From the NCBI GenBank assembly GCA_913009895.1, contig CAJVXY010000005.1, positions 2,026 to 66,025 of the forward strand: a stretch of DNA of 64,000 nucleotides, in the 5' to 3' direction. Below, piece by piece: positions 4,303 through 53,072 of this stretch (position 1 is its first letter; each line of letters opens with the position of its first letter). The notes beneath the pieces were generated by a model. That model was not told the DNA's origin. It made no database searches and saw only the letters and a list, made by a program, of their open reading frames with translations. A program made the position numbers and the translations under genes. The stretch is from an uncultured Acidiferrobacteraceae bacterium (lineage in GTDB: Bacteria; Pseudomonadota; Gammaproteobacteria; Acidiferrobacterales; SZUA-150).

Positions 4303-5103
<801 letters not shown>

Positions 5104-7173: not shown

Positions 7174-7203
7174 TTTAAGTATTTTTTAATTAACGCAAAA
7201 GCA

Positions 7204-31911: not shown

Positions 31912-31924
31912 GTTTTGTTTCCTA

Positions 31925-32656
31925 TTACCAGGAAGTGACGTCGTCCAGGGACGGTTCGTCCAGCCCCGGCTTGACGGTTGGGCCTTCTTTTTTCAAAGGA
32001 TTATCGGCACGAACCAGTTCATCCATGTGTATCTGGATACGGGTCTTACGGCGCGGTAAATAATGGTTGGCCGGCTGTGTGCCCCATTCAGGCATGAGCT
32101 GGTATCCACCCTCTTCACGAATGGCTTTTGATACCACCGATTCAGGATCGTGGACATCACCAAACAGCCGGGCACTGGTAGGACAAGCCAGGACACAAGC
32201 TGGTTTGCGTTCCGCCTCGGGTAAATTCTGATCATAGATTCGATCCACACACAAGGTACATTTTTTCATCACCTTCTGGTGTTCATCGATTTCGCGGGCG
32301 CCATAAGGACATGCCCACGAACAATACTTGCAGCCAATACATTTATCGTAATCTACCAGTACAATACCATCTTCCTCACGCTTGTAACTGGCGCCGGTTG
32401 GGCACACGGGTACACAGGGCGGATCTTCACAGTGTAAACAGGACTTGGGAAAATGCACCGTCTCTGTATTCGGGTATTCCCCCACTTCAAAGGTTTGTAC
32501 TCTATTAAAAAAAGTGCCGGTAGGTTGTTCGCCATAGGGCCTGTCATCTGATAATGCGCCCGCAACACCGGAAGTATTCCATTCCTTGCAACTGGTAACG
32601 CAGGCATGGCAACCCACGCATACATTCAGATCAATGACCAATGCCAATTGCGACAT
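31925..32656 (-). CDS. soeB: 4Fe-4S ferredoxin-type subunit (DmsB family, SoeB-like)
   Basis: The likely start MSQLALVIDLNVCVGCHACVTSCK (ATG 32656) lies 2 nt from the upstream stop. It has four Cys clusters (CxxCxxCxxxC types). Confidence 0.7.
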   Translation of the reverse strand: MSQLALVIDLNVCVGCHACVTSCKEWNTSGVAGALSDDRPYGEQPTGTFFNRVQTFEVGEYPNTETVHFPKSCLHCEDPPCVPVCPTGASYKREEDGIVLVDYDKCIGCKYCSWACPYGAREIDEHQKVMKKCTLCVDRIYDQNLPEAERKPACVLACPTSARLFGDVHDPESVVSKAIREEGGYQLMPEWGTQPANHYLPRRKTRIQIHMDELVRADNPLKKEGPTVKPGLDEPSLDDVTSW

Positions 32657-32657
32657 A

Positions 32658-35555
32658 TCAGGCTCCCTTTTTGCGACCGGCAAAATAAGCCTGCCACTTA
32701 ACGCGTTTGTTTTGCTGACCCGGGACAGGCGCGATGGCATCAAACTGTGGCAGGCTGACATCATCACCTTTTTTTTCGGCTTTATAGACGCGCACCCGCA
32801 CGTCATACCAGCCGGCCTGGCCAGTGACCGGATCCGAATTGGAAAAGCGAAAACCACTGGCATCGGCCGGCAACTCTTCGGAAATTAAATGATTCAACAA
32901 AAAACCTTTGCGAGATTCATCCGCTTTTGGTTCCAGGCTCCAGGCACCCGATGCTTTACCAATGGCATTCCAGGTCCAGACTGTGCCCGGTTCAACGGCC
33001 TCGGAAAAACGACACATACATTTTACCTTGCCCCATTGTGATTCGACCCAGACCCAGTCGCCATCATTAAATCCACCCTGCTTGCCCAGTGTTGGGCTCA
33101 TATATAGATGGTTGTAGGTATGAATCTGGCGCAGCCAGGCATTTTGAGAATCCCAGGAATGGTACATGGCCATGGGACGCTGGGTCACTGCGCTTAGTGG
33201 ATACTTATTTTTGTCAGTGGTCTGCACTTCCAGCGGCTCATAATAAAATGGCAAGGGATCAAAATAGGTTTCGATACGTTTGCGTAAATGGTCCGGTGGT
33301 TGTTTGCCAGTCGTTTTACCCTGGGCCGCCAGTCGAAAATGTTGTAACACCTCGGAATAAATATGAATGTTAATGGGCTCGGCATAACGGGTCAGTCGGT
33401 GGCGCTGGGCCCATTCAAGATATCCCTTGTTCCAGTTACGCATGTACTGAAATGACTTGGGCAACTCGTAGTGATAAACACAATTATTCTCTTCATACAT
33501 TTTCCACTGGTTCGGATTCGGTTCACCGCGCATGAATTTCTCACCGCCCTTGCCGCGCCAGCCTGCAAGAAAACCAATGCCAGAACCGGGCTCGGTTTCG
33601 TAGTTGGTGACAAAATCAGGATAGTCACGGAATTTGCGCACGCCTTCTTTATCGACAAACGCCGGCAACTTCAGGCGTGAACCCATTTCAATTAATACTT
33701 CCTGGAATGGTTTACATTCACCGGTAGGCGGCAAGACCGGAATACGAACCGCATCCACCGGCCCGTCAAATTCGGAAATAGGTCGATCCAGCATGGACAT
33801 GACATCGTGGCGCTCAAGATAAGTGGTATCGGGCAGTACCAGGTCGGCGTAAGCCACCATCTCGGACTGGAAGGCATCGCATACTATTATATAAGGTATC
33901 TTGAATTCACCGTTTTCATCCTTGTCGTTGAGCATTTTGCGTACTTCCGACGTGTTCATGGACGAATTCCAGGCCATGTTGGCCATAAAAATTAACAAGG
34001 TATCGATTTTGTAAGGATCGCCACGCCAGGCATTGGTAATGACGTTATGCATCAGTCCGTGAACTGATAACGGATACTCCCAGGAAAAGGCCTTATCAAT
34101 ACGAACGGGTTTGTTGTCGTCATCAACAAAAAGATCATCAGGCTCCGCGGGCCAGCCCAGGGCCATACCATCCAGTGGTGTATTGGGCTGGATGGCGCTT
34201 GGGTGGTCCGGGGTCTTGGCACACGGGGGAATTGGTCGTGGAAACGGCGCCTTGTGTCGAAAACCACCGGGTCGATCAATAGTACCCAGCAAGGTCATTA
34301 ATATAGACAGTGCCCGAATACTATGAAAACCATTGGAGTGTGCCGCCAGTCCGCGCATGGCATGAAACGCCACGGGATTACCGGTAATGGTTTCATGGTC
34401 CTTGCCCCAGATGTCGGTCCAGGCAATCGGTAACTCAATTTTCTGGTCGCGGGCGGTGACGCCCATTTCATGGGCAAGCCGGCGGATGGTCTCGGCCGGG
34501 ATACCGGTAATGCCCTCGGCCCATTCCGGTGTATATTCCTTGAGCCTGTCGACCAGCATCTGGAATGAAGGTTTTACCGGTGTACCATCTTCCAGCTCGA
34601 ATTCACCCATTAAGCGGGGATCGCAACCAGCCGTATGGGTGACTACCGCCTTGTTTTGATTGCGGTCCCACCACAGTTTGTTTTCAGGATCAAAACAACC
34701 TTCTTCAATGGGCACTTCGGCACGGACAAACATGCCGAATTCGGAATTCTTTTCGTCCAGGTTCACCAGTTCGGCGCCATTACTATACTGCACAACAAAA
34801 TCACGATCGTACAATCCCTGTTTGATGATCTCGTTATTCAACGCCAGTAACAGGGCGCCGTCTGTACCCGGGCGAATCGGAATCCACTCATCGGCAATAG
34901 CGGAATAACCAGTGCGCACCGGATTAATAGAAATAAATTTACCGCCATTTCGTTTAAATTTTGCAATGGCGATTTTCATGGGATTGGAATGGTGGTCTTC
35001 AGCCGTGCCCAACATGACAAACAGCTTGGCCCGATCCAGATCCGGGCCGCCGAATTCCCAGAACGAACCGCCAATGGTGTAAATCATGCCAGCGGCCATA
35101 TTGACTGAACAAAAACCACCATGGGCGGCATAGTTTGGCGTACCAAATTGTTTAGCAAATAAACCGGTCAATGCCTGCATTTGATCACGGCCGGTAAACA
35201 GTGCAAATTTTTTCGGATCCGTCCCACGAATTTTTGCCAGTCGTTTTTCCATGATGGCGAAGGCCTCGTCCCAGGAGATGGACTCGAAGGCATTATCACC
35301 CCGCTCGGCACCCGCCTTGCGCTTCAAGGGCTGGGTCAGGCGCGCGGGCGAATACTGTTTCATAATACCGGAGGCCCCCTTGGCGCAAATAACACCCTTG
35401 TTTAAAGGATGATCAGGGTTGCCTTCGATATAACGGACTTCGCCATCGCGCAAGGTGACGCGAATACCACAACGACACGCACACATATAACAGGTGGTGT
35501 TTTTGGTCTCAATCCGGCCGGAACGGTCCTCCTGATCTTTACCAGGTGCGGTCAT
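32658..35555 (-). CDS. soeA: Molybdopterin (bis-MGD) oxidoreductase catalytic subunit without a Tat signal; SoeA-like cytoplasmic sulfite dehydrogenase candidate
   Basis: 965 aa. An N-terminal CYMCACRCG...C FeS motif begins within 25 residues of the start, and there is no twin-arginine leader. Size and A-B-C gene order match SoeABC of purple sulfur bacteria. Confidence 0.6.
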   Translation of the reverse strand: MTAPGKDQEDRSGRIETKNTTCYMCACRCGIRVTLRDGEVRYIEGNPDHPLNKGVICAKGASGIMKQYSPARLTQPLKRKAGAERGDNAFESISWDEAFAIMEKRLAKIRGTDPKKFALFTGRDQMQALTGLFAKQFGTPNYAAHGGFCSVNMAAGMIYTIGGSFWEFGGPDLDRAKLFVMLGTAEDHHSNPMKIAIAKFKRNGGKFISINPVRTGYSAIADEWIPIRPGTDGALLLALNNEIIKQGLYDRDFVVQYSNGAELVNLDEKNSEFGMFVRAEVPIEEGCFDPENKLWWDRNQNKAVVTHTAGCDPRLMGEFELEDGTPVKPSFQMLVDRLKEYTPEWAEGITGIPAETIRRLAHEMGVTARDQKIELPIAWTDIWGKDHETITGNPVAFHAMRGLAAHSNGFHSIRALSILMTLLGTIDRPGGFRHKAPFPRPIPPCAKTPDHPSAIQPNTPLDGMALGWPAEPDDLFVDDDNKPVRIDKAFSWEYPLSVHGLMHNVITNAWRGDPYKIDTLLIFMANMAWNSSMNTSEVRKMLNDKDENGEFKIPYIIVCDAFQSEMVAYADLVLPDTTYLERHDVMSMLDRPISEFDGPVDAVRIPVLPPTGECKPFQEVLIEMGSRLKLPAFVDKEGVRKFRDYPDFVTNYETEPGSGIGFLAGWRGKGGEKFMRGEPNPNQWKMYEENNCVYHYELPKSFQYMRNWNKGYLEWAQRHRLTRYAEPINIHIYSEVLQHFRLAAQGKTTGKQPPDHLRKRIETYFDPLPFYYEPLEVQTTDKNKYPLSAVTQRPMAMYHSWDSQNAWLRQIHTYNHLYMSPTLGKQGGFNDGDWVWVESQWGKVKCMCRFSEAVEPGTVWTWNAIGKASGAWSLEPKADESRKGFLLNHLISEELPADASGFRFSNSDPVTGQAGWYDVRVRVYKAEKKGDDVSLPQFDAIAPVPGQQNKRVKWQAYFAGRKKGA

Positions 35556-38049: not shown

Positions 38050-40446
38050 TTAATTAGTAGTTATTTTTCCCACCTTATCAGTTACCTGGCTTGTATTCCC
38101 TGTAAATGCCATAGCAGATTCCAGAGAAAAATAGAAAGTAGCGCCATGATCAACTTCTGCCTCAGCCCAAACGGCTCCACCGTGTCGATGAACTATGCGT
38201 TGCACGGTTGCCAGGCCAATCCCGGTGCCCTCAAATTCCTCATCGCTGTGCAACCGTTGAAAAGCACCGAATAATTTACCTGCATACTGCATGTCAAAAC
38301 CAGCGCCGTTATCCTCTACGTAAAATATTGTCTTGCCTGCTCGCACTATTTTGCCAACTGTGACCTTGGCCGAGGATCTTTTGCGAGTATATTTCCATGC
38401 GTTGGTCAACAGATTATCCATTAAAATAACCAGCAGGTGTTGATCGCCATTAGTTCTCATGCCAGTTGCTATGTCAAACTGTACCTTGCGTCCGGGTTCT
38501 TGTTCATTCAGGTTATTAATAATATCACGGGCAATTTTGCTAATGTTGACTTGCCCGCGCATTAATCTACCGCGGCTAATGCGAGATAGCTGTAAAAGAT
38601 CGTCAATTAATAACGCCATGCGCCCTGCACCATTTCGTACCCGATGCAAGTAATCTCGCCCTTCATCATCCAGCTTTTCACCATAGTCTTCCAATAATGC
38701 CAGGCTAAATCCATCAATTGCCCGCAGCGGTGCACGCAAATCATGTGATACTGAGTAAGAGAATGCCTCAAGTTCTTTGTTGACCGTTTTGAGTTTGGCG
38801 GTGCGGTCTTCAACCAATTCCTCCAGTTTCTCCTGATGTTCTTTAAGTTCTTCTTCTACTTTTAAAGTTTCGGTTATATCCTCCACTAATGAAGTAACGC
38901 CAATCACTTTTCCAGTGCCATCGACTAAAGGTGTGTTATGCCACCTGCAATGAATTATAACCCCGCTTTTGGTTAGATTTTCGTTAGTACTATGAAATCC
39001 TCCGGTATTTTTTATAAGATCATTCCAGAGACTATTAACGTGTTCTTTAGCAGCATTCGGTATAATAAAACTGGCGTGGCGACCTATGGCGGCTTGCTTC
39101 GAATATCCAAATATTTTTTCTATTGCAGGATTCCAGTCAACAACATTAAAATCCAGGTCCCACTCAATCACACCTAAAGGTGTTTGCATAAAATGAAGGC
39201 CAAGTCTTTGTTGAAATCGATGCAACGTTTCTTCAGTCTGCTTTTTCTGAGTAATATCGCGGATTATCTCCAGCAACCCTATTACATTTCTATTGCTGTC
39301 AGTAACCTTTGTCTCATATGTCTTTCCAAAAAAGCATGACTGGTCCTTTCTTCGGTACTGCATCTCATATAAAGTCTGGCTGTCTTCTGCATCAGAACGA
39401 AATCGTAGTTTTTCCCGATCTTCATGATCTTTTGTATCGGCATATAACTTTGCTGTCACCTTGCCTTTCAATTCTTGAGCCGAGTACCCGAACATTTCAG
39501 TGATTGCAGGATTAACTAAAATAATTTTTCTTTCTATATCGGAATAAATAACGCCATCGCTTATAGAATTGAATACGGCTTCAAATTCTGCTTTACTTTT
39601 AGACAACTCCATATTCGAGTACCTCTGCATGTCCAGCAGACGTTGGTAGCTGCCCGAGATTACGCCCAGTTCATCAGTCGATTTTGATTGTAATAACGAG
39701 AAATCCATTGTGGATAAATCTTCAGTATGATTAAGGACTGTTTGTAGCGGAGCCAGTGACTGACCAAAACTGCGCATAAATATCAGGCTACCGCCAATTG
39801 CCAATAACTCCAGCATTAACCAGACAACAAATGTTTCAGTGGTAAAATACCCGGTCCGGGTCCAGTAATACTGAACCAGCATGCTATCAATGAGTAGTGG
39901 TATAAGGGCCCCTATTAGAAACACCTTTGTCCTGATGGTAACAATGGGGCGTTTGACCACCAGACCACCCATGGCTTTGCCAAATAAATCCATAATCAGA
40001 AAAAAAATTGGCAGGCCAACAATAATAGAAACAATGAGGGCCACTAAAGCAAACCGAAATAATATCAATGGCGTGATTACAAAATCAGTATGCAGCACTG
40101 CTGCTGCAACCACTGAAATTACTGCCAGAGACTGGTAGAGTAAAAATAAGCCCCAATACCATAACGGGAACTGTCGGATAGCAGATAATACTAACGACGA
40201 ATCGGTAGCACCCCTGGTCTTCAGCCAATCAGTAAGGGGACGTAACTTTTTTGGAAAAAACCAGATAATGAAGACTTGCCAACCCAAAATGTAAATTGGT
40301 TCGACTGGCATGGTGAGTATCTCGATTATTTGTTGTGTCGTAAGCACGCCAAACAACATGATAAATCCAAAACCAATCAAAGGTGGCAAGTTCCAGGTCA
40401 GGAGAATAAATAATAAAAAGCGCCTTTTAAAGCCAGCAGGTTCCAT
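38050..40446 (-). CDS. Sensor histidine kinase (multi-TM N-terminus, two PAS-like domains, HisKA, HATPase)
   Basis: 798 aa with H-box SHDLRAPL, N-box NLLTNAWKY and G-boxes EDNGAGF and GTGIGLATV. Confidence 0.9.
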   Translation of the reverse strand: MEPAGFKRRFLLFILLTWNLPPLIGFGFIMLFGVLTTQQIIEILTMPVEPIYILGWQVFIIWFFPKKLRPLTDWLKTRGATDSSLVLSAIRQFPLWYWGLFLLYQSLAVISVVAAAVLHTDFVITPLILFRFALVALIVSIIVGLPIFFLIMDLFGKAMGGLVVKRPIVTIRTKVFLIGALIPLLIDSMLVQYYWTRTGYFTTETFVVWLMLELLAIGGSLIFMRSFGQSLAPLQTVLNHTEDLSTMDFSLLQSKSTDELGVISGSYQRLLDMQRYSNMELSKSKAEFEAVFNSISDGVIYSDIERKIILVNPAITEMFGYSAQELKGKVTAKLYADTKDHEDREKLRFRSDAEDSQTLYEMQYRRKDQSCFFGKTYETKVTDSNRNVIGLLEIIRDITQKKQTEETLHRFQQRLGLHFMQTPLGVIEWDLDFNVVDWNPAIEKIFGYSKQAAIGRHASFIIPNAAKEHVNSLWNDLIKNTGGFHSTNENLTKSGVIIHCRWHNTPLVDGTGKVIGVTSLVEDITETLKVEEELKEHQEKLEELVEDRTAKLKTVNKELEAFSYSVSHDLRAPLRAIDGFSLALLEDYGEKLDDEGRDYLHRVRNGAGRMALLIDDLLQLSRISRGRLMRGQVNISKIARDIINNLNEQEPGRKVQFDIATGMRTNGDQHLLVILMDNLLTNAWKYTRKRSSAKVTVGKIVRAGKTIFYVEDNGAGFDMQYAGKLFGAFQRLHSDEEFEGTGIGLATVQRIVHRHGGAVWAEAEVDHGATFYFSLESAMAFTGNTSQVTDKVGKITTN

Positions 40447-40622
40447 GGCTAATACAAGTATCCGGGCTGCTTCCCAACCTTCATAATTATTTCCTTATAG
40501 TGGATAGACTATATATTAAAGCATACATAGTTAGGCATATACAAAATCGGAAGGTGGTGCTATCAATACCCGGTAAATACAGTCCGGGAAACTACGAGGA
40601 AATCTAACTTATAATCTAAAAA

Positions 40623-41234
40623 CTAGGCTGCTTGCTTATAACCGGTTGCCGCCAGAAACAAATCCACCATTTGCTTGAGCAGACTGTCCAGCGGCATGCC
40701 CTTGTATCGTTCATTGCCCTGGATACACTTTACATACAATACTTCACGAATCATGCCCTGGAACATGAGGCTGGCAGCTTTGGGGTTAACGTGACTGGCG
40801 CGACCCTCTGCAGCCAGTTCTTTCAAGCCTACTTCGATATAATCGGCAAAGGATCGCCAGCGATTTTCAAAAAAATGCTGGGCGGCAGGCGCGTCTTCCA
40901 GGGCGCTCATGAGCTCCATGCGCAAATAATCGGGATCACGGGATATACTATTAGCGAACAACTGGGTCATGCCCAGCAATACGCTTTTAAAATCAGATGG
41001 CTCTGTGAGTATGGTATCTACGTAACTTTCCCGTTTTTCGGAAATCTCATTCAGTACCGACTCATACAGCGCTTCTTTAGAGGGGAAATGCTGATATAAA
41101 ACGGCCGGGCTTACGCCCAGCCGTTTTGCGATCTCGTCTACCGACACGCCATGATAGCCCTTGTCGGCGAACAACACCTTGGCCACCGCAAGTATGGTGG
41201 CCCGTCGTTCTGCGGCTTTTAGTCGTTTGGTCAT
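40623..41234 (-). CDS. TetR family transcriptional regulator
   Basis: N-terminal HTH ILAVAKVLFADKGYHGVSVDEIAKRLGVSPAVLYQHFPSKEALY. Confidence 0.9.
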   Translation of the reverse strand: MTKRLKAAERRATILAVAKVLFADKGYHGVSVDEIAKRLGVSPAVLYQHFPSKEALYESVLNEISEKRESYVDTILTEPSDFKSVLLGMTQLFANSISRDPDYLRMELMSALEDAPAAQHFFENRWRSFADYIEVGLKELAAEGRASHVNPKAASLMFQGMIREVLYVKCIQGNERYKGMPLDSLLKQMVDLFLAATGYKQAA

Positions 41235-41261
41235 AAATGTTGCCTGACCAGGTATAAAAAA

Positions 41262-41486
41262 CTAGGCCTTGCGAATATCGAAAACAAATTCACCGTTGTT
41301 TTCGCCAGAAGACATCAGCTCGTTACCTGTTTGCTTGCAAAATGCCTCGAAGTCTTTTACAGAACCCGGGTCAGTAGCAATAATGTGCAATACCTGTCCA
41401 GATTCAAGGTCATTAATGCTCTTTTTCGCACGTAAAATCGGTAGTGGGCAATTTAATCCCCGTGCATCCAGTTCCATATCAGCCAT
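41262..41486 (-). CDS. tusA: TusA/SirA-family sulfur carrier protein
   Basis: 74 aa, LDARGLNCPLPILRAKK, with the conserved Cys-Pro motif. Confidence 0.8.
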   Translation of the reverse strand: MADMELDARGLNCPLPILRAKKSINDLESGQVLHIIATDPGSVKDFEAFCKQTGNELMSSGENNGEFVFDIRKA

Positions 41487-41798
41487 ATTTCATCTCCAGT
41501 TAAGTTAGTGAACGTTCATTTATTTACACCTCTGGGCAGTTATTGTCAAATAGTTATTTAACCTAATAATTTCAATAAGTTATGAATTTATTTTTTGTGT
41601 TTTGTATCACATGGAGACAAACAGGTGTTGTATTGGCCCAGTATAAGGCTATTTTGACAATATTTACGCCATTCGACTGGGTGTGCGCACAAATAGAATT
41701 ATTTAAACATTTATTTTGAATTATTTTTGTTTGCAGGGGAATAAATTGGTCATCCATGTATCTAAGGTATCTCAATAATTATAATAATTTAGATATCC

Positions 41799-42353
41799 AT
41801 GTTTTTATCCAATTTGGGGAACCGCCATCTAAGACCAAGGGTTACCGCAATGGCCCCAAGACTAAGGGCTATTGCGTTTTCCTGGGGATGTAAACCCGAT
41901 GTCTGTGATGACCTGGTACAGGAAACAGTCGCGACTGCCATTGATAAGCTCGGGCAATTGCGTAGTCCGGACGCCCTGGAATCCTGGATCATCAGCATTT
42001 TCACCAATTGTCATAATCTTTACTTGCGTCGAGCGCGTTATCTCACCGACATGGAAAACGTCGAGCTGGTTGACGACAACACGCCACTCACACAACTGGA
42101 TAGTTCGCGCACAGTTGAAATGGTGCGCGCAGCCATCGCCAAACTAAGCGATGAACACCGTAAGGTCCTGACCCTCGTTGACATGGAAGGCATGACATAT
42201 AGCGAAGTGGCTGCCGTCCTGAATATTAAAATCGGTACTGTTATGAGTCGACTTTGCCGTGCCCGGGCACGACTACGAATAATTCTTAAAACATTATTGC
42301 AAAAAGAAACATCCGACCATGACAAAAATAAACATTTACGGAGGGTAAAATGA
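41799..42353 (+). CDS. ECF-type RNA polymerase sigma factor
   Basis: Region 2 is DDLVQETVATAI...; region 4 is EHRKVLTLVDMEGMTYSEVAAVLNIKIGTVMSRLCRARARL. The N-terminal boundary is uncertain. Confidence 0.85.
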   Translation: MFLSNLGNRHLRPRVTAMAPRLRAIAFSWGCKPDVCDDLVQETVATAIDKLGQLRSPDALESWIISIFTNCHNLYLRRARYLTDMENVELVDDNTPLTQLDSSRTVEMVRAAIAKLSDEHRKVLTLVDMEGMTYSEVAAVLNIKIGTVMSRLCRARARLRIILKTLLQKETSDHDKNKHLRRVK

Positions 42354-43102
42354 AGAAACCTCTGCCAGTCTCTGAAGAGATGCTTAATATTTTCGCCGAT
42401 GACGAACTTGATGCCAAAGAACGTGAACAAGTACTTGTCGAGCAAATGCACAACGAGGATGTTGCCCGGGCTATTTGTGAAATACGCCTGCTCAAGGATC
42501 TTGTGAAATCGGCCCGACCACAGGTTGATAATACCTATACTTCTGGCAAAACCTATAAACAGCGCCATTTAAATAAATGGATGATGGTGGCGTCAGTTGT
42601 GCTTGTCATCACTGCAGTCATGGTAACCCTGCTTCCCGAAAAAACGAATAATGCGGGCCAGGTAAAATCTACTACTGCAACGGAACAAACTTACTCAGAT
42701 GTCAATAGCTTTCTCAGTGCCCAGTCAAACAACCCGGATCTAAAAATCGTATTACATATCAAGAAAAATAATCCTGAAGCTTATGCTCGCTTGATCAGGC
42801 AGCTGGAATACCTGTTAAAGACAACCAGGGAAAATAGTCAGCCACTTCGTGTCGATGTCGTCGCCAGTGGTCCCGGTCTGGCTTTTGTCGGCAGGCAAAC
42901 ATCGCCTTATGCAAGAAAGATTCACCTGCTCAGGCAGGAGTATGACAACCTTATTTTTTTCGCCTGTCAGTCGACCCTGGAAAAACTAAATAGTAAGAAT
43001 AATACAAATTTTAAAATTCTCCCTGATGTCGTTCTGACTGCATCCGGTACAGAATTGATTCAACTGCGTAAAAAACAGGGCTGGTCACATATCGTTATCT
43101 GA
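42350..43102 (+). CDS. Anti-sigma factor (single TM helix) fused to a periplasmic DsrE/DsrF-like (COG1416-type) domain
   Basis: ATGA overlap with the sigma gene. A short N-terminal cytoplasmic segment is followed by TM helix WMMVASVVLVITAVMVTLL. The C-terminal LKIVLHIKKNN...LRVDVVASGPGLAFV...IFFACQSTLEKL...VLTASGTELIQLRKKQGWSHIVI fits the COG1416 pattern. Confidence 0.65.
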   Translation: MKKPLPVSEEMLNIFADDELDAKEREQVLVEQMHNEDVARAICEIRLLKDLVKSARPQVDNTYTSGKTYKQRHLNKWMMVASVVLVITAVMVTLLPEKTNNAGQVKSTTATEQTYSDVNSFLSAQSNNPDLKIVLHIKKNNPEAYARLIRQLEYLLKTTRENSQPLRVDVVASGPGLAFVGRQTSPYARKIHLLRQEYDNLIFFACQSTLEKLNSKNNTNFKILPDVVLTASGTELIQLRKKQGWSHIVI

Positions 43103-43194
43103 TTTTTTGTTTCACATGAGTACTAAGGGTTATCGCCAATATTTGTCCGGGGTTGGCGGTGATTAACAACAACACAAATGGAGGAAATATCAAA

Positions 43195-44406
43195 ATGTCA
43201 TACAATTTAAAAATAAATAAAACCTTATGGGGCGCGCTGTTACTGGTGATCACCCTTGGCACCAGTGGCGCCTTACTGGCTCACGATAAAGACAACATCG
43301 TGGCTGGTATTATCAGTGCACCTGTGGTCATGAACGGCACAGTGGCCAATGAACCAACGGAATTTAACTTAATCTTTAATGCCCAGGGCAAGGGTCTAAA
43401 ACATGCGCTGGATCCCAAATTATTTGGTTATCAAATTCCAGCAGGCGGTCGCATGGAGATCGAGCTAAGCGATGAGTTCACGCGTAATACCCGTATCAAC
43501 CCGGCTACCAATGCGGTTGAGCCGGTACCCATTAAACCCAATGCCAATATTATTCTAACCACTGGCCCGCAGAACCCGATTATTTTTGCCGGTGGTACAA
43601 CCGTGGCCCGTGGTAACTGGAGTGTCAGTGACAATGGTGAAAACCTGATTACGCTTACGCCGAACGGTGGCAGTGGTGCCAATGGCCTGGAAAATGCCCG
43701 CGCCAATGAAATTGGTATGAAAGTAATCCATGTACGACCTAACCCGCGCACCAGGGATAATACGCCTTTTATCAATGGTGATGTGGGTGAGACGGGCAAG
43801 ATAATGGTTCGTATCTACGGTGCTGATGGTATGCTAAAACAGTCCGGTTACGGTAAAGTTAAATTTAAAGCACGCGTTGGTCGCCAGATACACAATACAA
43901 ATGCAGGCCTGCGTACCACACCAGGTGGCTCACCACTGGTTGAAACGATTGAACTGATCGACTTCCAAAGAGTGGCGCCAAATACTGCGTTGACCAACGA
44001 TACACAGTACAGCCCATTTTCTGCCGGTTATCCTTATGCGCCACGGTTCCTGCTGTTTGAAGAACTTGATCAATCTGTTCGTGGTTTATTTACCCCGGCA
44101 TCTTATATCGCCCAACCCGGTATCGAGAATGTTACTTACGAGGTCAACGCCCATAAGCCCTGGAAGGCAAAATTGGTCCAGGTAACGGAAACCGGTCGCA
44201 ACATGATTGGTAAAATTGAGATCAAGGGGCATCACGGTACCATATTGCCCAGTCCTGGCCTGACAACCATTGGCGGTAATGGCAGTTACCTGACTGTGCC
44301 AGTACGGGTCGGAGATGAAGATGGTGAGTATAAAGTGACGGTGTCACTGTCTCATGGTGGTTCGGCAACAACCACAATTATTGTTGAAGAAGAGGATCAC
44401 GATTAA
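43195..44406 (+). CDS. Secreted protein of unknown function
   Basis: The likely start is MSYNLKINKTLWGALLLVITLGTSGALLA|HDK (signal peptide); the track ORF starts at 43153. It is about 400 aa with no recognised family. Confidence 0.6.
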   Translation: MSYNLKINKTLWGALLLVITLGTSGALLAHDKDNIVAGIISAPVVMNGTVANEPTEFNLIFNAQGKGLKHALDPKLFGYQIPAGGRMEIELSDEFTRNTRINPATNAVEPVPIKPNANIILTTGPQNPIIFAGGTTVARGNWSVSDNGENLITLTPNGGSGANGLENARANEIGMKVIHVRPNPRTRDNTPFINGDVGETGKIMVRIYGADGMLKQSGYGKVKFKARVGRQIHNTNAGLRTTPGGSPLVETIELIDFQRVAPNTALTNDTQYSPFSAGYPYAPRFLLFEELDQSVRGLFTPASYIAQPGIENVTYEVNAHKPWKAKLVQVTETGRNMIGKIEIKGHHGTILPSPGLTTIGGNGSYLTVPVRVGDEDGEYKVTVSLSHGGSATTTIIVEEEDHD

Positions 44407-44424
44407 ATCCTGGTCTTGTTAGTC

Positions 44425-44456
44425 AAAAGGCCGCTTTTAAAGCGGCCTTTTTTTAT
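44425..44456 (+). terminator. Rho-independent terminator
   Basis: aaaaggccgct-tttaa-agcggcc followed by T8. Confidence 0.85.
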
Positions 44457-44477
44457 TCATAAAAAATTGGTTTTATA

Positions 44478-44678
44478 TTATACCTTGTTCACAAAATCCC
44501 TGCCACCCGCCTCGCGCAGCATATTTGCTATTTCTTCCTGAAACCTGGTAATTGCAAAACGCACGGGTGAAAAACCGTTGTGATTGGGGACATTGGGGTC
44601 AGCGCCATATTTCAGTAATACCTTAACAACCTCAGCATGGGCACTGGTCACTGCGCCCCATAATGGTGTCGTGCACAT
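44478..44678 (-). pseudogene. 3' fragment of an ankyrin-repeat gene (a duplicate of the 3' end of 47027-47647)
   Basis: It encodes ...TTPLWGAVTSAHAEVVKVLLKYGADPNVPNHNGFSPVRFAITRFQEEIANMLREAGGRDFV. By eye the DNA is about 90 percent identical to 47037-47232. Confidence 0.7.
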
Positions 44679-44783
44679 AATGAAGGCCGGTCAAACACGG
44701 GCTTTACCCGCCATTGTTTTGTTCTTAATCGCTTATACTATATATACGGTTAGTGACAGGTCACTAAATAATTAACCCAGCCA

Positions 44784-45830
44784 TTATTTTTTCTCTGCTG
44801 GACAACCCTCCAGATTCTCGTCCAAAAAACGTTGGTAGTTTTCCGCGCTGACAATATGGGTACCATCACAATTAAATTGCATACGTATAGCGTCCTGGAC
44901 AATACCAATACTGACATTACGAACATAAAAATTTGGTATTGCCCTGAGATCAGTTAGTTTTGAAATAACGTTTGTTAATTCACTTTCTGGAGTGGGTTGC
45001 CATCGTTGCTGAGAAACCGCAAACAGTTCTCGCCAGTTGTCAGGCAGTTTTTCCAGGCTATTGTGACTCGCAATGTAACCGTACAAACCTTTTATCAGGC
45101 CCGTTTTTTCCCGGTATGAAATTTTTGGAAAATGGCGATCAATATACGCCCGGTCTGCCAGTTTCCGGGCAATATGAATTTCTGTCGACAGGGGATCAAA
45201 AACAGAATTAACTCTTACTTCGCCATTATTAAAACCAACATAAAGCCGATAAATACACCGGTTAAGCAATAATTCTTCCATGCTCTCCTGTAATTGCGGC
45301 AATATGGGATCAACAACACTGGTATAGCGTTCACGGCTATAAGTCGTTTCCCTGAGCGAGGGGTCGCCCTTAATGCTGACATGTAAATTATCAACACAAA
45401 TGCCCATGGCGTTAAGTATTTGCTCCTTCAGGGACAGCTCTTGATTACGTATTGAAAACTTGTGATAAATTTTTTCGGCAACATCTGGCCTTGCCTGCAC
45501 AATTTCCAGGAATTTGTCCTTGTCTACGCCCAGCATAGTAGTCTCTTCCAGGGCTGTGACCGAGGCATTACGTGTGCTGGTACTGAGAATAGCCATCTCA
45601 CCAAAATAATCTCCGGCCTTGAGTACTGATATCTGTTCAGCTACCCCGTTTTTATCAATGGTGACGGAAACAGACCCCTTCTCGATGTAATAAAACGAAT
45701 CGGCAGAATCACCCTCAGAAAAAATAAGCTGGTCTTTTTTAAAGCACTGGGCATGGGCATACTTTTTAATATCCGCCAGCTCAATATCGGAGAACGGTGC
45801 TGTAATAGATGTCGTACGTGCAGGTTTCAT
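44784..45830 (-). CDS. Cyclic-nucleotide-binding (CAP_ED) domain protein with an uncharacterised ~210-aa C-terminal domain
   Basis: N-terminal FSEGDSADSFYYIEKGSVSVTI...LKAGDYFGEMAILSTSTRNASVTA; the C-terminal half is unrecognised. Confidence 0.7.
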   Translation of the reverse strand: MKPARTTSITAPFSDIELADIKKYAHAQCFKKDQLIFSEGDSADSFYYIEKGSVSVTIDKNGVAEQISVLKAGDYFGEMAILSTSTRNASVTALEETTMLGVDKDKFLEIVQARPDVAEKIYHKFSIRNQELSLKEQILNAMGICVDNLHVSIKGDPSLRETTYSRERYTSVVDPILPQLQESMEELLLNRCIYRLYVGFNNGEVRVNSVFDPLSTEIHIARKLADRAYIDRHFPKISYREKTGLIKGLYGYIASHNSLEKLPDNWRELFAVSQQRWQPTPESELTNVISKLTDLRAIPNFYVRNVSIGIVQDAIRMQFNCDGTHIVSAENYQRFLDENLEGCPAEKK

Positions 45831-45994: not shown

Positions 45995-46585
45995 GCTGCT
46001 GTCCCTCAATTTGTGATAAATATCAAAGCCTGACCTCAAGTTGTTACAATGTGTGTGCGAACAAACATCTGCAATAACGTGAGATCAGGCTTTGTCACGT
46101 AATAACACTGCTTTTCATCAGTCGCTAAAACCTTTATCGAGACATAACTTTGAGGCTTTGGCGAAAACACATCATTCTGGTCAAAAATTACAATCGGCCA
46201 GCCATTGGAATCAATTTATTGCGATGGCAATGTCGCAACGATCTGGCAGGCGAAATCTGCGAGATATAGCGTCGAATGTGCTAACGCAGCAGCAAAAACT
46301 TTATCATCACGGTACCAAGCCCGTTGCCAAAACGACGCTGGCACGTCTAGAAATGCGATTTTAACCCAGATATGGATAGCAATGATTACATATTTACTAC
46401 TGGCCTATGCACGGCATCGCGCCAAAGCGGGCTGGACGGTACAACGTATTATGCGAGTCATTCAGTTGAATTTATTCGAGCGTAGAACGTTAGAAGAGAT
46501 ACTTGATCCTGATCCGTCAAGGCATAAAAAAAGCGAACCTCAAATGAAGTTCGCTTTGTGATTTTCAACTGTGGGACAGTAGTGG
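45995..46585. mobile_element. Internally deleted IS4-family element (MITE-like derivative) with terminal inverted repeats
   Basis: ORF 46092-46364 reads like the DUF4372-type N-terminus of an IS4 transposase (FHQSLKPLSRHNFEALAKTHH...). ORF 46205-46561 carries a C-terminal tail (IWIAMITYLLLAY...). The ends gctgctgtccctcaatt and aactgtgggacagtagtg form imperfect inverted repeats. Confidence 0.6.
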
Positions 46586-47026: not shown

Positions 47027-47647
47027 TTACTCTCTCTGTACCTTAATCACAAAATCCCTGCCACCCGCCTCGCGCAACATATTTGCTATTTCTTCCTGAA
47101 ACCTGGTAACTGCAAAACGCACGGGTGAAAAACCGTTGTGATTGGGAACATTGGGATCGGCGCCATATTTCAGTAATAGCTTAACGACATCAGCATGGGC
47201 GCTGGTCACGGCCCCCCAGAATGGTGTTGTGCCAATATTATTCTTTGCATGAATATCTGCCCCTTTAGAAATCAGCAACTCTATAGTTGCAAGGTTATCT
47301 GTCCAGGTAGCGTGTTCCAATGGTGTGTTACCCAGATCGTCCCGGGTGTTTATTTTTGCACCCTTTTCCAGTAACAACTTTACAACATCAGTATGGCCGG
47401 CAGTGGCCGCGGTCATTAGTGGTGTATTACCTTTATAATCCCTGGCATCAACAGCCATACCAGCTGCCAGGAGTTTTTTAACGTCTGCTATATTTCCAGC
47501 TTTGGTAGCTGTGTGTAGCGCATCCCCATTGCTGATAGCCATAACAGGCTGCAAGATCATAAAAAGTATTGCCGGAAATATAAATGATCTGGGAATTGTC
47601 ATAATCGTTACGCCTTGTTTCTGTTGGATAATAATCATAATACGCAA
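47027..47647 (-). CDS. Secreted ankyrin-repeat protein
   Basis: The probable start is MTIPRSFIFPAILFMILQPVMA (ATG 47602). It has four to five ANK repeats (GNTPLMTAATAGHTDVVKLLLEKGAKIN...). Confidence 0.8.
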   Translation of the reverse strand: MRIMIIIQQKQGVTIMTIPRSFIFPAILFMILQPVMAISNGDALHTATKAGNIADVKKLLAAGMAVDARDYKGNTPLMTAATAGHTDVVKLLLEKGAKINTRDDLGNTPLEHATWTDNLATIELLISKGADIHAKNNIGTTPFWGAVTSAHADVVKLLLKYGADPNVPNHNGFSPVRFAVTRFQEEIANMLREAGGRDFVIKVQRE

Positions 47648-49695: not shown

Positions 49696-50217
49696 TTACC
49701 TGATTTTTATGAAGGCAAAACCCTTTTCCTGTAATTCGGCAATACGAACGACACCCGATTTGACCAGCTCTATGCCTGGCAACAGCTTTTCCTTGTCCAG
49801 ATTAAGTGCGACCCGGGTAATATCACAAAGCTCCAACTTGACATCCTGTGCTTCCTTTATACTAATAACTCGCTCTAATATCTCGGTTTTTCGTTTCAGG
49901 AATTCCTTGTTTTCCTCAAAAGGCGTTCCTTTCATTGGATCCTCTGTTGTATAACGGATCCCCGCTCCCAGGAAAACGATGCGCACGTCATATTCCTGTA
50001 ATGATTCCTGGTACACATTAACCATATTATTGACACTGGTTAGAGTGGCGCTGACCCGGTCCGTGTCATAAAAATCGATGAGATAAACGACCTTTTTTAC
50101 ATCCTCGACCACTGCTTCTGGTTCTGGCGCTTCTTTTGGCGTGCACCCGGAAACCGACAGGACAACGCCCATAAGAGCCAAAAGTACATATAAATTCGCG
50201 ATGTTATTGAACTTCAT
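49696..50217 (-). CDS. DsrE/DsrF-like (COG1416-type) lipoprotein
   Basis: Lipobox VSGC, then KKVVYLIDFYD...VRIVFLGAGIRY...LELCDITRVALNL...VKSGVVRIAELQEKGFAFIKI. Confidence 0.65.
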   Translation of the reverse strand: MKFNNIANLYVLLALMGVVLSVSGCTPKEAPEPEAVVEDVKKVVYLIDFYDTDRVSATLTSVNNMVNVYQESLQEYDVRIVFLGAGIRYTTEDPMKGTPFEENKEFLKRKTEILERVISIKEAQDVKLELCDITRVALNLDKEKLLPGIELVKSGVVRIAELQEKGFAFIKIR

Positions 50218-50368: not shown

Positions 50369-51115
50369 ATGAAAATTGCCATTTTATCTGATATCCACAG
50401 CAACCTGGAAGCCCTAAAAGCTTGCTGTCGTAAGGCAGCAAGCATCGGTGTTGAAAAATACTTCTGCCTGGGAGATATGATTGGCTACGCAGCAGATCCG
50501 GTAGCTACCCTCGATATAATAATGAATCTACCAGGTCTTATCGCAGTTAGAGGAAACCATGACAATGCCGCCCTGAATGGTGACTATGCTGGACTAGGTA
50601 AATTCATACAGGAATCTGCTAACTGGACACATCGGCAATTGAGCGCAGAGCATAAGGCCTTCATTCGAAGCCTGCCCTATGTCCAAACTATTGATAACAT
50701 AACTTTAGCCCATGCCTCCGTCTACGAACCAGAACAGTGGCAATATTTATATGATGAACCCCAGATAATAAATTGCCTGGATGCTGCCGGTACCCCGCTT
50801 GTTTTCCTGGGACACACCCATCACCCCAAACTGTATTACGAAAATACGAAATCAGAAATTAGTGAGCTCCATCCGAACGAAAGTACCAGTATTCCTATTT
50901 ACCAGAATCGGCGATATGTGGCGAATGTCGGATCAGTTGGCCAGCCTCGTGACCAGAACAGTGCTGCCAGCTTTGTTATTTATGATACAGGTACCGCTGA
51001 AATTACTTACTACAGGGTAGCCTATGATTTTACAGAAACAGCAGCAAAAATACTTGCTGCGAACCTGCCGCCTGGATTTGCCAAACGTCTGGACAGGCAC
51101 AAGTGGCATCAATGA
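50369..51115 (+). CDS. Metallophosphoesterase (calcineurin-like; candidate protein phosphatase partner)
   Basis: MKIAILSDIHSN...GDMIGYAADP...VRGNHD...GHTHHP. Confidence 0.8.
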   Translation: MKIAILSDIHSNLEALKACCRKAASIGVEKYFCLGDMIGYAADPVATLDIIMNLPGLIAVRGNHDNAALNGDYAGLGKFIQESANWTHRQLSAEHKAFIRSLPYVQTIDNITLAHASVYEPEQWQYLYDEPQIINCLDAAGTPLVFLGHTHHPKLYYENTKSEISELHPNESTSIPIYQNRRYVANVGSVGQPRDQNSAASFVIYDTGTAEITYYRVAYDFTETAAKILAANLPPGFAKRLDRHKWHQ

Positions 51116-52584
51116 ATCACTCTGACTCAATCAAGAAAAATAATGAGCAAGACAGCTCTTTCCATCAGCCAAAACTTGGTGATACTGTTGATGGATTTTA
51201 CATCAAGGAGGCTTTATTCGAAGGAATTTTTAACAACATTTATCGCGTAACGCACCCTGATCACGACCAGGCCCTTATTATGAAGGTACCCAGTCTGAAT
51301 ATCGGCGTCCCGCCCAGCGCCTTCTCGGCGTTTGAGACTGAGGTTCGCATACTGTCCCAACTCCATGGTGTTTATACCCCCAGGGTTATTGCCAAGGGTG
51401 ATATGGCTACCTGCCCTTATGTCGTATTAGAAAATATTGAGCATAACGCCCTGACAAAAGCAATCAAGCGGGCACCCGTCTCGACAGAAGAATTATGTGA
51501 ACTTATGATACCGGTTTGTAAGGCTGTTCACGAATTGCATAAACATAATGTCATTCACCTGGATATAAAACCCGGTAACATTCGTAATCGCAAAAATGGC
51601 CATGTTGTCATTCTCGATTTCGGTAGTTCTCACCATACCCATATTCCGGATATGTATGAGCATCACCATGATGAAGCGCCACGGACACTGGACTATGTCG
51701 CCCCAGAGCAATTACATAATATTCGCCATGAATCCCGTAGCGATATTTATGCGCTCGGTGTAATTCTATACCAGCTGGCTACTGGTAAATTACCTTTTGG
51801 TGAAGCCAATGTCCTAACGGTTAAAAAAAGACTTTACATGCCACCAACTCCGCCCCTGTATTACAATAAAACTTTACCACCCTGGCTACAGGAAATTATC
51901 CTGACTTGCCTGCAGCGTCGCCCGAAAAATCGCTTTGCTACCGCGAAACAAATTGCCCATTCACTTGCCCACCCCAATATAGTCAAGCTAACCCGGAAAG
52001 CAAAACGAACAAAAAAACCCGGTTTCCTGACTATAGTTCGTACATGGCTACACTCAAAACGTGACGATTATCTAAAAACTGCCGGGCTTTATCCCAATAC
52101 CAGGGCCACCAGGACACCACATATCCTGGTTGCACTTGACCTTAGTCATTCTTCTGATGATTTAAAAAAGGCATTGCGAACAACTTTGTGGCGTCTTGCA
52201 AACAGTGACAAGCAGAGTTTCTTTACTATTTTAACGGTACTGGAAAAGAATGACCTGAGCGGAACTGAAGATTTTACTGAGATTATCAAAAATAAACATC
52301 CAACTCATGTCCATCTACAAATAGAATTGCGTCAATGGATGCAACCATTAAATTTACCTGAAAGTCGCGTTAATTATCAGGTTATTGAGGGAAATGTCAG
52401 CGATGAAATATTATATTACGCAAAACACAACATGCTGGACCAAATTGTGATCGGTGCCCGGGGCAGCTCAACACTACGACGATTTTTGGGTAGCGTCTCC
52501 AGCAAGATTGCTGCAGAAGCACCCTGCACCGTAACTGTGGTGCGCAGTCACCTTGACGAGTATATTCAACAAACTGAAGCGTAA
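51112..52584 (+). CDS. Ser/Thr protein kinase fused to a C-terminal universal stress protein (USP) domain
   Basis: Catalytic loop HLDIKPGNI, DFGSS and APE are present. The C-terminal HILVALDLSHSS...IVIGARGSSTLRRFLGSVSSKIAAEAPCTVTVV is USP-like. There is an ATGA start/stop overlap with the phosphoesterase gene (the track start is 51103). Confidence 0.8.
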   Translation: MNHSDSIKKNNEQDSSFHQPKLGDTVDGFYIKEALFEGIFNNIYRVTHPDHDQALIMKVPSLNIGVPPSAFSAFETEVRILSQLHGVYTPRVIAKGDMATCPYVVLENIEHNALTKAIKRAPVSTEELCELMIPVCKAVHELHKHNVIHLDIKPGNIRNRKNGHVVILDFGSSHHTHIPDMYEHHHDEAPRTLDYVAPEQLHNIRHESRSDIYALGVILYQLATGKLPFGEANVLTVKKRLYMPPTPPLYYNKTLPPWLQEIILTCLQRRPKNRFATAKQIAHSLAHPNIVKLTRKAKRTKKPGFLTIVRTWLHSKRDDYLKTAGLYPNTRATRTPHILVALDLSHSSDDLKKALRTTLWRLANSDKQSFFTILTVLEKNDLSGTEDFTEIIKNKHPTHVHLQIELRQWMQPLNLPESRVNYQVIEGNVSDEILYYAKHNMLDQIVIGARGSSTLRRFLGSVSSKIAAEAPCTVTVVRSHLDEYIQQTEA

Positions 52585-52595
52585 CTTTTTGTCAC

Positions 52596-53072
52596 TCACT
52601 GTCTCGCTTTCGCAAAATCACTATGGGTGACATTTGACATTAACTGTGTGAATTGCATTCCGCTCATATGAATAAGATGCGTGTGATCACCTGCTTCAAA
52701 ATATACATCGGAGCAATTCTCCAGGCTTTTGTCCATAATGACATCTATCCCATAGGCATTACCAATAGGCGGAATCGCACCCAGTTCGCAGTCTGCAAAT
52801 AAATGGCCAACTTCATTTTCTGGTGCCAGGACCAAATGCTTGTGATATTGATTATGAAGTTTATCCAGGTTCACCTGGTAATTTGCCGGGATAACCGCCA
52901 ATAAATATCTGCCGTTTTCATCCTCCAACATGACACTTTTTACCATGTGTTTGCCCGGAATATGGGCAACCTGGGCCGTCTCTGAACTGGCATAGGTATG
53001 GGAATGTATAAGAACCGTATAATCTATATTTTTATCTGTCAGGTATGATTTTAAAGTGATTGCAATAGCCAC
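52596..53072 (-). CDS. YbaK/ProX-like aminoacyl-tRNA deacylase domain protein
   Basis: 158 aa, ...KSVMLEDENGRYLLAVIPANYQVNLDKL...GAIPPIGNAYG... Confidence 0.65.
   Translation of the reverse strand: MAIAITLKSYLTDKNIDYTVLIHSHTYASSETAQVAHIPGKHMVKSVMLEDENGRYLLAVIPANYQVNLDKLHNQYHKHLVLAPENEVGHLFADCELGAIPPIGNAYGIDVIMDKSLENCSDVYFEAGDHTHLIHMSGMQFTQLMSNVTHSDFAKARQ

Follow-up and report, generated by a model that had tools for sequence, protein, structure and literature searches.

A candidate periplasmic sulfur-responsive ECF sigma factor switch with a DsrE-like domain in its predicted anti-sigma factor, from an uncultured Acidiferrobacteraceae bacterium

What would a DsrE-like domain do on the periplasmic side of an anti-sigma factor? 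The question is raised by a locus in a 64,000-nucleotide stretch of DNA (the window; positions 2,026 to 66,025 of contig CAJVXY010000005.1, GenBank assembly GCA_913009895.1) from an uncultured Acidiferrobacteraceae bacterium. An earlier reading made from the letters alone (the sequence-only reading) had described there a candidate sulfur-sensing module composed of a TusA gene, a gene for a sigma factor of the extracytoplasmic function (ECF) type, a gene for an anti-sigma factor fused to a DsrE-like domain, and a gene for a secreted protein with no recognisable family. In the present study, a sigma/anti-sigma pair in which a DsrE-like domain faces the periplasm was found to be highly probable, and the best explanation of the locus, given somewhat better than even confidence, is a periplasmic sulfur-responsive ECF switch, for which we infer both the nature of the signal and the role of the secreted protein of 403 amino acids (aa).

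The window anti-sigma protein taken alone gave no Pfam or NCBIfam DsrE match, and a word-indexed homolog search returned seven close relatives. An exhaustive HMMER search with the profile of these seven against 50%-identity cluster representatives resulted in 736 matches at E ≤ 1e-3 and 466 at E ≤ 1e-10, and nearly all of the best 150 matches were full length (228–266 aa). The family profile made from an alignment of 129 diverse members matched PDB entry 1L1S (MTH1491, which we take to be a COG1416 member) at E = 2.3e-21 over positions 127–245 and 2PD2 (ST0148) at 5e-11, and Pfam DsrE (PF02635) was matched individually by 45 of the 129 members. In the predicted structure, the predicted local distance difference test score (pLDDT) exceeded 90 over residues 131–249, and the leading Foldseek match was again 1L1S, with a target-normalised template modelling (TM) score of 0.90 and a root-mean-square deviation of 2.7 Å, followed by 2PD2 (0.84) and then by 2QS7, 3PNX, 2HY5 (a DsrEFH chain) and 2FB6, structures of the DsrE/DsrF family. 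The sensor domain, as modelled, has the DsrE-type alpha/beta fold and, at the level of the family profile, belongs to the COG1416 subgroup of the DsrE/DsrF-like family. The sequence-only reading had recognised this COG1416 pattern by its motifs, and the profile and structure comparisons bore it out, even though the match is invisible in the single sequence.

Residues D17, G176, C206, and W245 are invariant in the 129 members, and H136, A205, R240, G244, and Y247 are nearly so. Exactly one Cys is present beyond residue 100 in 128 of the 129, and C206 aligns with the Cys of the MTH1491 motif "FCAC", which places it, by alignment, at the signature Cys position of the DsrE-like family. MTH1491 and ST0148 are the closest relatives of the sensor domain in both sequence and fold, with the common signature H, G, F-x-A-C, and R-x-x-x-G-W-x-Y-I; however, these two are soluble archaeal proteins of small size whose entries call them hypothetical or of unknown function, whereas the sensor domain is exported, fused to an anti-sigma module, and accompanied by exported bacterial paralogs. 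Structures of COG1416 DsrE-like proteins have been available since 2002, and we know of no demonstrated function for them. The DsrEFH, TusBCD, and DsrE3 proteins share the fold superfamily (2HY5, 2QS7, and 3PNX in the Foldseek list), but their similarity to the sensor domain is far below that of the COG1416 proteins, and they are cytoplasmic, non-signalling, and act with TusA and DsrC. They carry sulfane sulfur or thiosulfonate on Cys, and this is the chemistry proposed here for Cys206.

The AlphaFold2 model of the whole anti-sigma protein (mean pLDDT 87.9) consists of helices over residues 9–55, followed by the one transmembrane helix that had been read from the sequence, at residues ~75–95 (75–93 as modelled), and then by the sensor domain. 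Lysine plus arginine residues flanking the helix average 3.4 on the N-terminal side and 0.95 on the C-terminal side in the 129 members, in accordance with the positive-inside rule, and the DsrE-like domain is therefore placed in the periplasm. At E ≤ 0.01, zf-HC2 was matched by 24 of the 129 members and RseA_N by 4, the window protein had no anti-sigma Pfam match, and the family profile hit the N-terminal domains of MucA and RseA in the PDB weakly (E 0.03–0.04). The RseA-like motif L-N-A-F-V-D-x-E-L is present in 85 of the 129 members, and the zinc motif HxxxCxxC was found in the first 70 residues of none. The anti-sigma gene is located directly 3' of the ECF sigma gene in all 84 non-redundant loci where the sequence allows this to be judged, a recurrence beyond what chance would give. 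The N-terminal domain homology is thus weak but consistent, and the gene context is the strongest argument for the predicted anti-sigma identity.

The arrangement resembles the Escherichia coli RpoE–RseA system (ECF02), where an ECF sigma factor is likewise translationally coupled to a single-pass anti-sigma factor with a cytoplasmic N-terminal domain carrying the RseA-type motif and a periplasmic C-terminal domain serving as the input. It differs from that system in the periplasmic domain, which is RseA_C there and DsrE-like here, in the absence of an RseB gene, in promoter specificity, and presumably in the signal, misfolded porins in the one case and sulfur chemistry in the other. Inactivation of RseA by regulated proteolysis is the best-understood model for such proteins.

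The partner of this protein is an ECF (group IV) sigma factor: sigma2 and sigma4 domains are present (Sigma70_r2, 9e-7; Sigma70_r4_2, 5e-16), the length of 184 aa falls within the range of ~170–200 aa, and the NCBIfam superfamily model TIGR02937 (sigma70-ECF) is matched with 71.6 bits against a cutoff of 42.9. An alternative start at ATG 41850 would give 167 aa, a reading called in some relatives; the 184-aa reading is preferred because the N-terminal extension and ATG 41799 are conserved in relatives. By comparison with published group descriptions, the sigma factor probably belongs to, or stands next to, the ECF26/ECF207 clade. ECF207 was split off the original ECF26, and the promoters of the two groups share the -35 element GGAATAAA and have GTC (ECF207) or GTT (ECF26) at -10 (Casas-Pastor et al. 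2021 supplement). The members of the present family are likewise proteobacterial ECF sigma factors with a single-pass anti-sigma factor encoded at +1, the -35 element is identical, and the family -10 GTC is that of ECF207, as are the Cys in sigma2 and, in some subgroups, the sigma N-terminal extension of ~20 aa. ECF26 includes the Sinorhizobium meliloti factors RpoE1 and RpoE4, which sulfite activates and which control SorT, a sulfite dehydrogenase of the periplasm (PMC3511301), so that members of this group govern the periplasmic oxidation of a sulfur compound. In contrast, the anti-sigma factors of ECF207 and ECF26 carry a zinc motif and an RskA-like C-terminal domain, whereas the anti-sigma factor described here lacks this defining feature throughout the aligned family, as far as the motif search reaches, and has a DsrE-like domain instead; the window clade additionally has ATC at -10, not GTC or GTT.

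Expression of the pair was approached through its promoter. Enumeration of dyads upstream of the sigma genes of 78 loci, with shuffled controls, detected GGAAT-N17-CGTC in 44 of the 78 loci against at most 4 in the shuffles, and the family consensus is TGGAATAAA-N14-CGTCT. The general form is GGAATAAA-N13/14-CGTCT with YATCT at -10 in the window clade, and the loci without the exact motif have one-base changes in spacing or variants of the -10 element. In the window clade, GGAATAAA-N13-(T/C)ATCTA at about -110 from the start is kept in seven relatives (L001, L003, L004, and L008–L011), although the anti-sigma proteins are only 33–39% identical. A strict scan of 0.96 Mb resulted in 123 matches against ~11 expected from the window shuffle rate (0.73 per 64 kb); 68 of these stood before annotated sigma open reading frames (ORFs) and 7 more at the equivalent position (~75 of 84 loci), and at least 24 were located on the opposite strand, before a divergent DsrE-like paralog. 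An autoregulatory promoter upstream of the sigma gene is accordingly predicted for most of the family.

The copy in the window lies 36 nt before ATG 41799 and is the only strict match there; no copy was found in the window before tusA, the 403-aa gene, or the gene of a DsrE-like lipoprotein. Of the two places where the sequence-only reading advised looking for an ECF-type promoter, upstream of 41799 and of 43195, the first has one and the second does not. The overlap of the sigma stop and the anti-sigma start is the ATGA at 42350–42353, preceded by GGAGGG, the 403-aa gene starts behind the Shine-Dalgarno sequence GGAGG, and no terminator was found between the three genes, the strong one standing at the operon end. 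Since the 403-aa gene has no promoter copy of its own, the three genes are taken to form one autoregulated unit, a predicted three-gene operon (Table 1). The sequence-only reading had the translational coupling, the signal-peptide protein of ~400 aa without a known family, and the strong terminator right. A scan of positions 40500–45000 against Rfam gave zero RNA elements.

Table 1 Features of the sigma/anti-sigma locus and of nearby genes (window coordinates)
Feature	Position	Strand	Details and basis
ECF-type promoter (predicted)	41738-41763	+	-35 GGAATAAA, spacer 13 nt, -10 TATCT
ECF sigma factor gene	41799-42353	+	184 aa; Pfam Sigma70_r2 and r4_2, NCBIfam sigma70-ECF
Putative single-pass anti-sigma gene	42350-43102	+	250 aa; coupled to sigma gene (ATGA)
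Cytoplasmic anti-sigma domain, residues 1-57 (predicted)	42350-42520	+	RseA-like L-N-x-F-x-D-x-E-L motif
Transmembrane helix, residues ~76-95, N-in/C-out (predicted)	42575-42634	+	AlphaFold2 model, translation, lysine plus arginine bias
Periplasmic DsrE-like (COG1416-type) domain, residues 127-250 (predicted)	42728-43099	+	profile, Foldseek, Pfam DsrE
Cys206 codon	42965-42967	+	sole Cys of periplasmic part; invariant in alignment
Secreted 403-aa protein gene	43195-44406	+	Shine-Dalgarno and ATG, signal peptide; Cys-free, nearly all-beta
Intrinsic terminator at operon end	44425-44451	+	12-bp stem, 6 GC pairs, loop 3, T-run
DsrE-like lipoprotein gene, stand-alone	49696-50217	-	paralog of sensor domain; Pfam DsrE 29.6 bits
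TusA-family gene, divergent, judged outside module	41262-41486	-	Pfam TusA E=1.3e-23
Mo-oxidoreductase A/B/DmsC-type trio, Soe-like	30934-35555		Pfam architecture

Two further observations concern the sigma factor and its motif. The sigma factors of the window clade have two Cys in region 2, S-W-G-C-x-x-x-x-C-D-D-L-V-Q (window 41799-41900, residues 28–36), where those of other clades have S-W-(C/S)-H-x-x-x-x-x-D-D-L-V-Q, and this variant co-varies with the change of the -10 element from CGTCT to YATCT; it may be a sign of altered -10 recognition. Weaker copies of the motif, e.g., GGAATATGGGCAACCTGGGCCGTCT with an off-consensus spacer, occur at 52957-52981(+), 15269-15245(-), and 29014-28990(-) of the window, the one at 52957-52981(+) being antisense inside ORF 52596-53072 with no plus-strand gene near, and they are probably chance matches.

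The distribution of the pair was determined by a genome scan that used one genome per species and a tighter alignment as the query; 80 of the 108 relatives were retrieved, and almost all of them are sulfur- or iron-oxidising Beta- and Gammaproteobacteria. The hosts include Acidiferrobacteraceae, Sulfuriferula, Thiobacillus, Thiogranum, Thiohalobacter, Sedimenticola, Sulfuritalea, Sulfuricella, Sulfurisoma, Sideroxydans, Gallionellaceae, and Woeseiaceae, and the closest relatives of the window are metagenome-assembled genomes (MAGs) of Acidiferrobacterales. Judged from these genomes, the sigma/anti-sigma pair forms a module that is spread widely among the sulfur and iron oxidisers of the two classes. 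The sequence-only reading had regarded the fusion as unusual. With 736 matches it is not rare; at the same time, no prior description of it was found in the literature searched.

Clustering of the ORFs flanking the non-redundant anti-sigma loci showed that stand-alone DsrE-like ORFs of 140–175 aa, one or two per locus and usually divergent from the sigma gene, are present in most loci outside the window clade. A signal peptide was found in all 41 of these paralogs and a Cys in an F-x-A-C-x-N-T motif in 40. Sox genes (soxY of the GGCGG type, soxZ, soxB, and soxA, each scoring above the cutoff of its NCBIfam equivalog) occur within 6 kb of the module in 19 of 85 loci. The family promoter also stands before genes other than the sigma and paralog genes; judged by the look of their sequences, these encode SoxY in three loci (L037, L058, and L066), a cytochrome c resembling SoxX whose gene precedes soxYZ (L065), a SoxB-like protein (L056), CPYC-containing DsbC/G-like proteins (L057 and L059), DsbD-like proteins in five loci, and a YeeE-like transporter (L017). 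Taxonomy, sox neighbours, and predicted promoter targets all tie the module to periplasmic sulfur oxidation, and the original idea of sulfur-linked signalling was strengthened.

Several details of these neighbourhoods are worth recording. In some genomes, two different exported DsrE-like paralogs adjoin the module (L018 4186-5313(-), L032, L046, and L086), and a further paralog pair is located in L013 at 4859-5317 and 6745-7185. At least three to four subtypes of the exported paralogs can be distinguished, e.g., ...FSACGNTM...QGYSYIRP, ...F(K/R)VCNNTLK...EGYVYLKP, and ...VACENTM...EGWAYIRP, which points to a diversified periplasmic COG1416 family. Moreover, a phosphogluconate dehydrogenase gene (cluster C18) lies directly 3' of the module in ~11 loci (e.g., L003 9478-12596 and L018 6835-7755), and in Sulfuriflexus it is followed by a glucose-6-phosphate dehydrogenase gene; this linkage may reflect the synteny of Sulfuriferula-like genomes or a functional link.

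The third gene of the predicted operon is confined more narrowly. Its product has a signal peptide, zero Cys, and no sequence relative in Pfam, NCBIfam, or the PDB; the AlphaFold2 model (pLDDT 93.4, predicted TM score 0.88) is almost all-beta, and Foldseek returned for it only generic multi-Ig-like proteins with TM scores below 0.25. The most conserved stretch is G-L-E-N-A-R-A...K-V-I-H-x-R-P-N-P-R. The gene follows the anti-sigma gene only in the window clade (the window, L001, L003, L004, and L007–L011), where it has this operon position in all 11 non-redundant anti-sigma loci. Of the co-occurrence that the sequence-only reading advised surveying in sulfur oxidisers, the wide recurrence of the fusion was confirmed and the company of the 403-aa protein was limited to one clade. 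When the survey was centred on the 403-aa family, 8 of the 20 metagenomic loci with enough upstream sequence carried the sigma/anti-sigma pair. A promoter search before 17 stand-alone genes of this family detected one copy, the clade-specific promoter 56 nt upstream of the gene in L112, and no recurrent informative partner was found among the neighbours of the stand-alone genes. Because most members of the family occur without the module, the 403-aa protein is more likely an output of the switch than a dedicated co-sensor.

Two occurrences of the 403-aa family outside the module can be added. In L006 (5026-10782), a stand-alone member has a molybdopterin oxidoreductase gene on one side and two rhodanese genes on the other, and a thioredoxin-like gene is close by; this setting is a weak hint of a tie to sulfur metabolism and does not recur at other stand-alone loci. 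A Caldilineaceae (Chloroflexota) MAG encodes three paralogs (P0081, P0084, and P0088), two of them with consecutive locus tags and apparently adjacent, far beyond the proteobacterial range of the sigma/anti-sigma module.

How might such a switch operate? In the mechanism proposed here, the anti-sigma factor would hold the sigma factor at the membrane when no signal is present. Periplasmic reduced or sulfane sulfur, such as thiosulfate, polysulfide, or a persulfide carried on SoxY or on a DsrE-like paralog, would bind or modify Cys206. The DsrE-like domain would thereby change its conformation or its oligomeric state, and this would inactivate the anti-sigma factor, most likely by regulated proteolysis in the manner of RseA. 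The released sigma factor would then transcribe its own operon, with the 403-aa secreted protein as the main output in the window clade. Direct Cys-based sensing by the DsrE-like domain is a reasonable possibility that falls somewhat short of an even chance. Its more specific form, in which the domain is a direct receptor of sulfane sulfur or thiosulfate and persulfidation or thiosulfonation of the Cys triggers destruction of the anti-sigma factor, is put forward tentatively.

Several points weigh against this explanation. The DsrE assignment comes from the family profile and the predicted structure, the window protein alone having no DsrE match, and with a similarity to MucA and RseA at E ~0.03, the anti-sigma identity is carried mainly by gene context. 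We know of no COG1416 protein with a demonstrated ligand, and regulated proteolysis is assumed by analogy. The DsbC/G- and DsbD-like promoter targets would suit a thiol-redox signal, too. In the window clade, no sox gene or DsrE paralog stands behind the promoter, and the sole output is the Cys-free 403-aa protein, the gene of which is stand-alone in 12 of the 20 loci of its family, with no promoter in 11 of those 12.

These points give room to other explanations. Instead of binding a small sulfur compound, the DsrE-like domain could be a docking module that forms hetero-oligomers with the exported paralogs or, in the window clade, with the 403-aa protein. It would then signal by titration or by a switch of partners, in a manner similar to the modulation of RseA by RseB, the co-regulated partner giving feedback. 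DsrE-fold proteins are typically homo- or hetero-oligomers, a paralog divergent from the sigma gene is under the same promoter in at least 24 loci, the paralogs are exported to the compartment of the sensor, and the window clade always co-transcribes the secreted protein. At the same time, an invariant single Cys within a full COG1416 signature suggests that chemistry was kept and not a mere scaffold, the sensor domain is conserved across clades that have different partners, and the 403-aa family is found mostly without the module. Docking as the principal function is considered rather unlikely on this balance; it is nevertheless compatible with a sulfur-responsive switch, and both could coexist. 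A lower probability is given to a general sensor of periplasmic thiol/disulfide or oxidant stress (oxidants, copper, or disulfide stress) controlling a thiol-repair regulon, which we regard as quite unlikely. The single Cys of reactive type and the DsbC/G-like (L057 and L059) and DsbD-like (five loci) genes behind the motif would suit it, and disulfide stress is what the related group ECF12 responds to (ECF reclassification supplement). However, a generic redox sensor would not be expected to be so strongly confined to sulfur and iron oxidisers, to have sox genes no more than 6 kb away in 19 of 85 loci, or to have soxY and SoxX-like promoter targets. Moreover, DsbD- and thioredoxin-like proteins (SoxV and SoxS) belong to Sox systems themselves.

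Two further alternatives concern the composition of the module, and both are judged very improbable. The 250-aa protein might be no anti-sigma factor, but a periplasmic sulfurtransferase anchored in the membrane and tied to the ECF sigma factor by nothing more than a common operon, as the weak N-terminal homology to known anti-sigma domains and the lack of an anti-sigma Pfam match in the window protein would allow; against this stand overlapping or abutting frames at +1 in essentially all 84 loci, a zf-HC2 or RseA_N match in 28 of the 129 members, the RseA-like motif in 85 of them, and the model with a helical N-terminal domain followed by one transmembrane helix. The other alternative, to which we give hardly any credence, unites TusA, the module, the DsrE lipoprotein, and SoeABC in a single unit for sulfur relay and signalling, in which TusA would feed or read the sensor. 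These genes are physically close in the window, and the cooperation of TusA with proteins of the DsrE family in sulfur relays of the cytoplasm is established. The TusA-family assignment itself is clear from Pfam (83 bits), the NCBIfam TusA equivalog being matched with 60.7 bits, below its cutoff of 78. However, tusA lies near the module in only 3 of the 104 loci that hold the pair (the window, L087 at 2.2 kb, and L077 at 1.4 kb) and is absent within 9 kb of the module in the 82% relative (L001). TusA is a cytoplasmic protein that lacks a signal peptide, in contrast to the periplasmic sensor, its gene has no ECF motif, and the Soe-like genes are parted from the module by unrelated genes. In a DNA alignment of three relatives, the sequences are unrelated up to ~60 nt before the promoter and strongly conserved from there on, and the left edge of the module is therefore placed just upstream of 41738. 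Synteny thus largely refutes the wider TusA/Soe unit, and TusA, which the sequence-only reading had counted in, is predicted to lie outside the module.

No description of this architecture was found in the literature on anti-sigma or ECF factors in combination with DsrE, soxY, COG1416, or Sulfuriferula, and the ECF reclassification paper with its supplements (1.3 M characters) has no mention of DsrE, PF02635, COG1416, or SoxY; in the literature searched, no described ECF group with this architecture was found. The public names of the family are "hypothetical protein" and, for one automatic UniRef label, "DsrE/DsrF family protein", none of them referring to an anti-sigma factor, and the architecture is therefore currently invisible to annotation. 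To our knowledge, little has been established on how chemolithotrophic sulfur oxidisers outside the Alphaproteobacteria sense reduced sulfur and turn on their sox and related periplasmic genes. In Alphaproteobacteria, the sox genes are repressed by the ArsR-type SoxR. The physiological role would be the same, the coupling of sox expression to the availability of reduced sulfur, but SoxR, a one-component repressor of the cytoplasm, has no relation to the present module in sequence, mechanism, or compartment.

As a candidate sensor, the present family is open to testing: the sensory residue (Cys206) and the promoter are defined, a regulon is predicted, and cultured hosts carry it (Sulfuriflexus mobilis, with all three genes, Sulfuriferula spp., and Sulfurisoma sediminicola). 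The input domains known from ECF anti-sigma factors would be joined by a new one, and DsrE-fold proteins would be seen to operate in the periplasm. Should the domain prove to be a direct receptor, the module would be the main transcriptional switch for sox and other periplasmic sulfur genes in chemolithotrophic Beta- and Gammaproteobacteria, and a first function would be given to COG1416 proteins, to the exported paralogs, and, in the window clade, to the 403-aa family. These prospects should interest researchers in both sulfur oxidation and ECF signalling.

The remaining genes around the module were also inspected. The second DsrE-like protein noted earlier, a lipoprotein, was verified: its Pfam DsrE match is above cutoff, the anti-sigma profile finds it at 2e-8, it has the lipobox VSGC and a single motif Cys, and it is present in L001, L007, and L087. 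Its link to the module is uncertain: the gene is syntenic in close relatives, but no ECF promoter was detected before it. The nearby SoeABC of the sequence-only reading corresponds to a trio ~6 kb off with a Soe-like Pfam architecture (molybdopterin A subunit, 4Fe-4S B subunit, and DmsC/NrfD-type anchor). It shows no linkage to the module and has no bearing on it; a GGDEF/EAL response regulator gene, a receiver protein gene, an ORF of 798 aa (38050-40446) that is sensor-kinase-like by sequence appearance, and a TetR gene lie between them. Left of the sigma gene, a 67-aa minus-strand ORF (41572-41775) was rejected as spurious, not being conserved relative to the 68-aa ORF called in relatives.

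Past the terminator, a 66-aa ORF at 44478-44678(-) is 89% identical to the C-terminal third of a 206-aa protein encoded 2.3 kb away at 47027-47647(-), which is ankyrin-repeat-like by sequence. A gene for a cyclic nucleotide monophosphate (cNMP)-binding domain and two overlapping ORFs resembling transposase remnants are located between the duplicated pieces (44784-45830 and 46092-46561), and in L001 the cNMP gene is on the opposite side of the module; the duplication and the moved gene suggest a recent rearrangement or insertion. Further downstream, a Metallophos phosphoesterase gene (50369-51115(+)) runs into the beginning of the next one (51103-52584(+)), which encodes a Ser/Thr kinase fused to a universal-stress (Usp) domain. 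The pair, with its domains called there, has the same order in L001 and L002 and is syntenic with the DsrE lipoprotein gene. A calcineurin-like phosphoesterase is given as a conserved neighbour in the description of ECF207 (Casas-Pastor et al. 2021 supplement), and it is conceivable that the phosphoesterase at 50369-51115 is linked to the module through a neighbourhood of this type.

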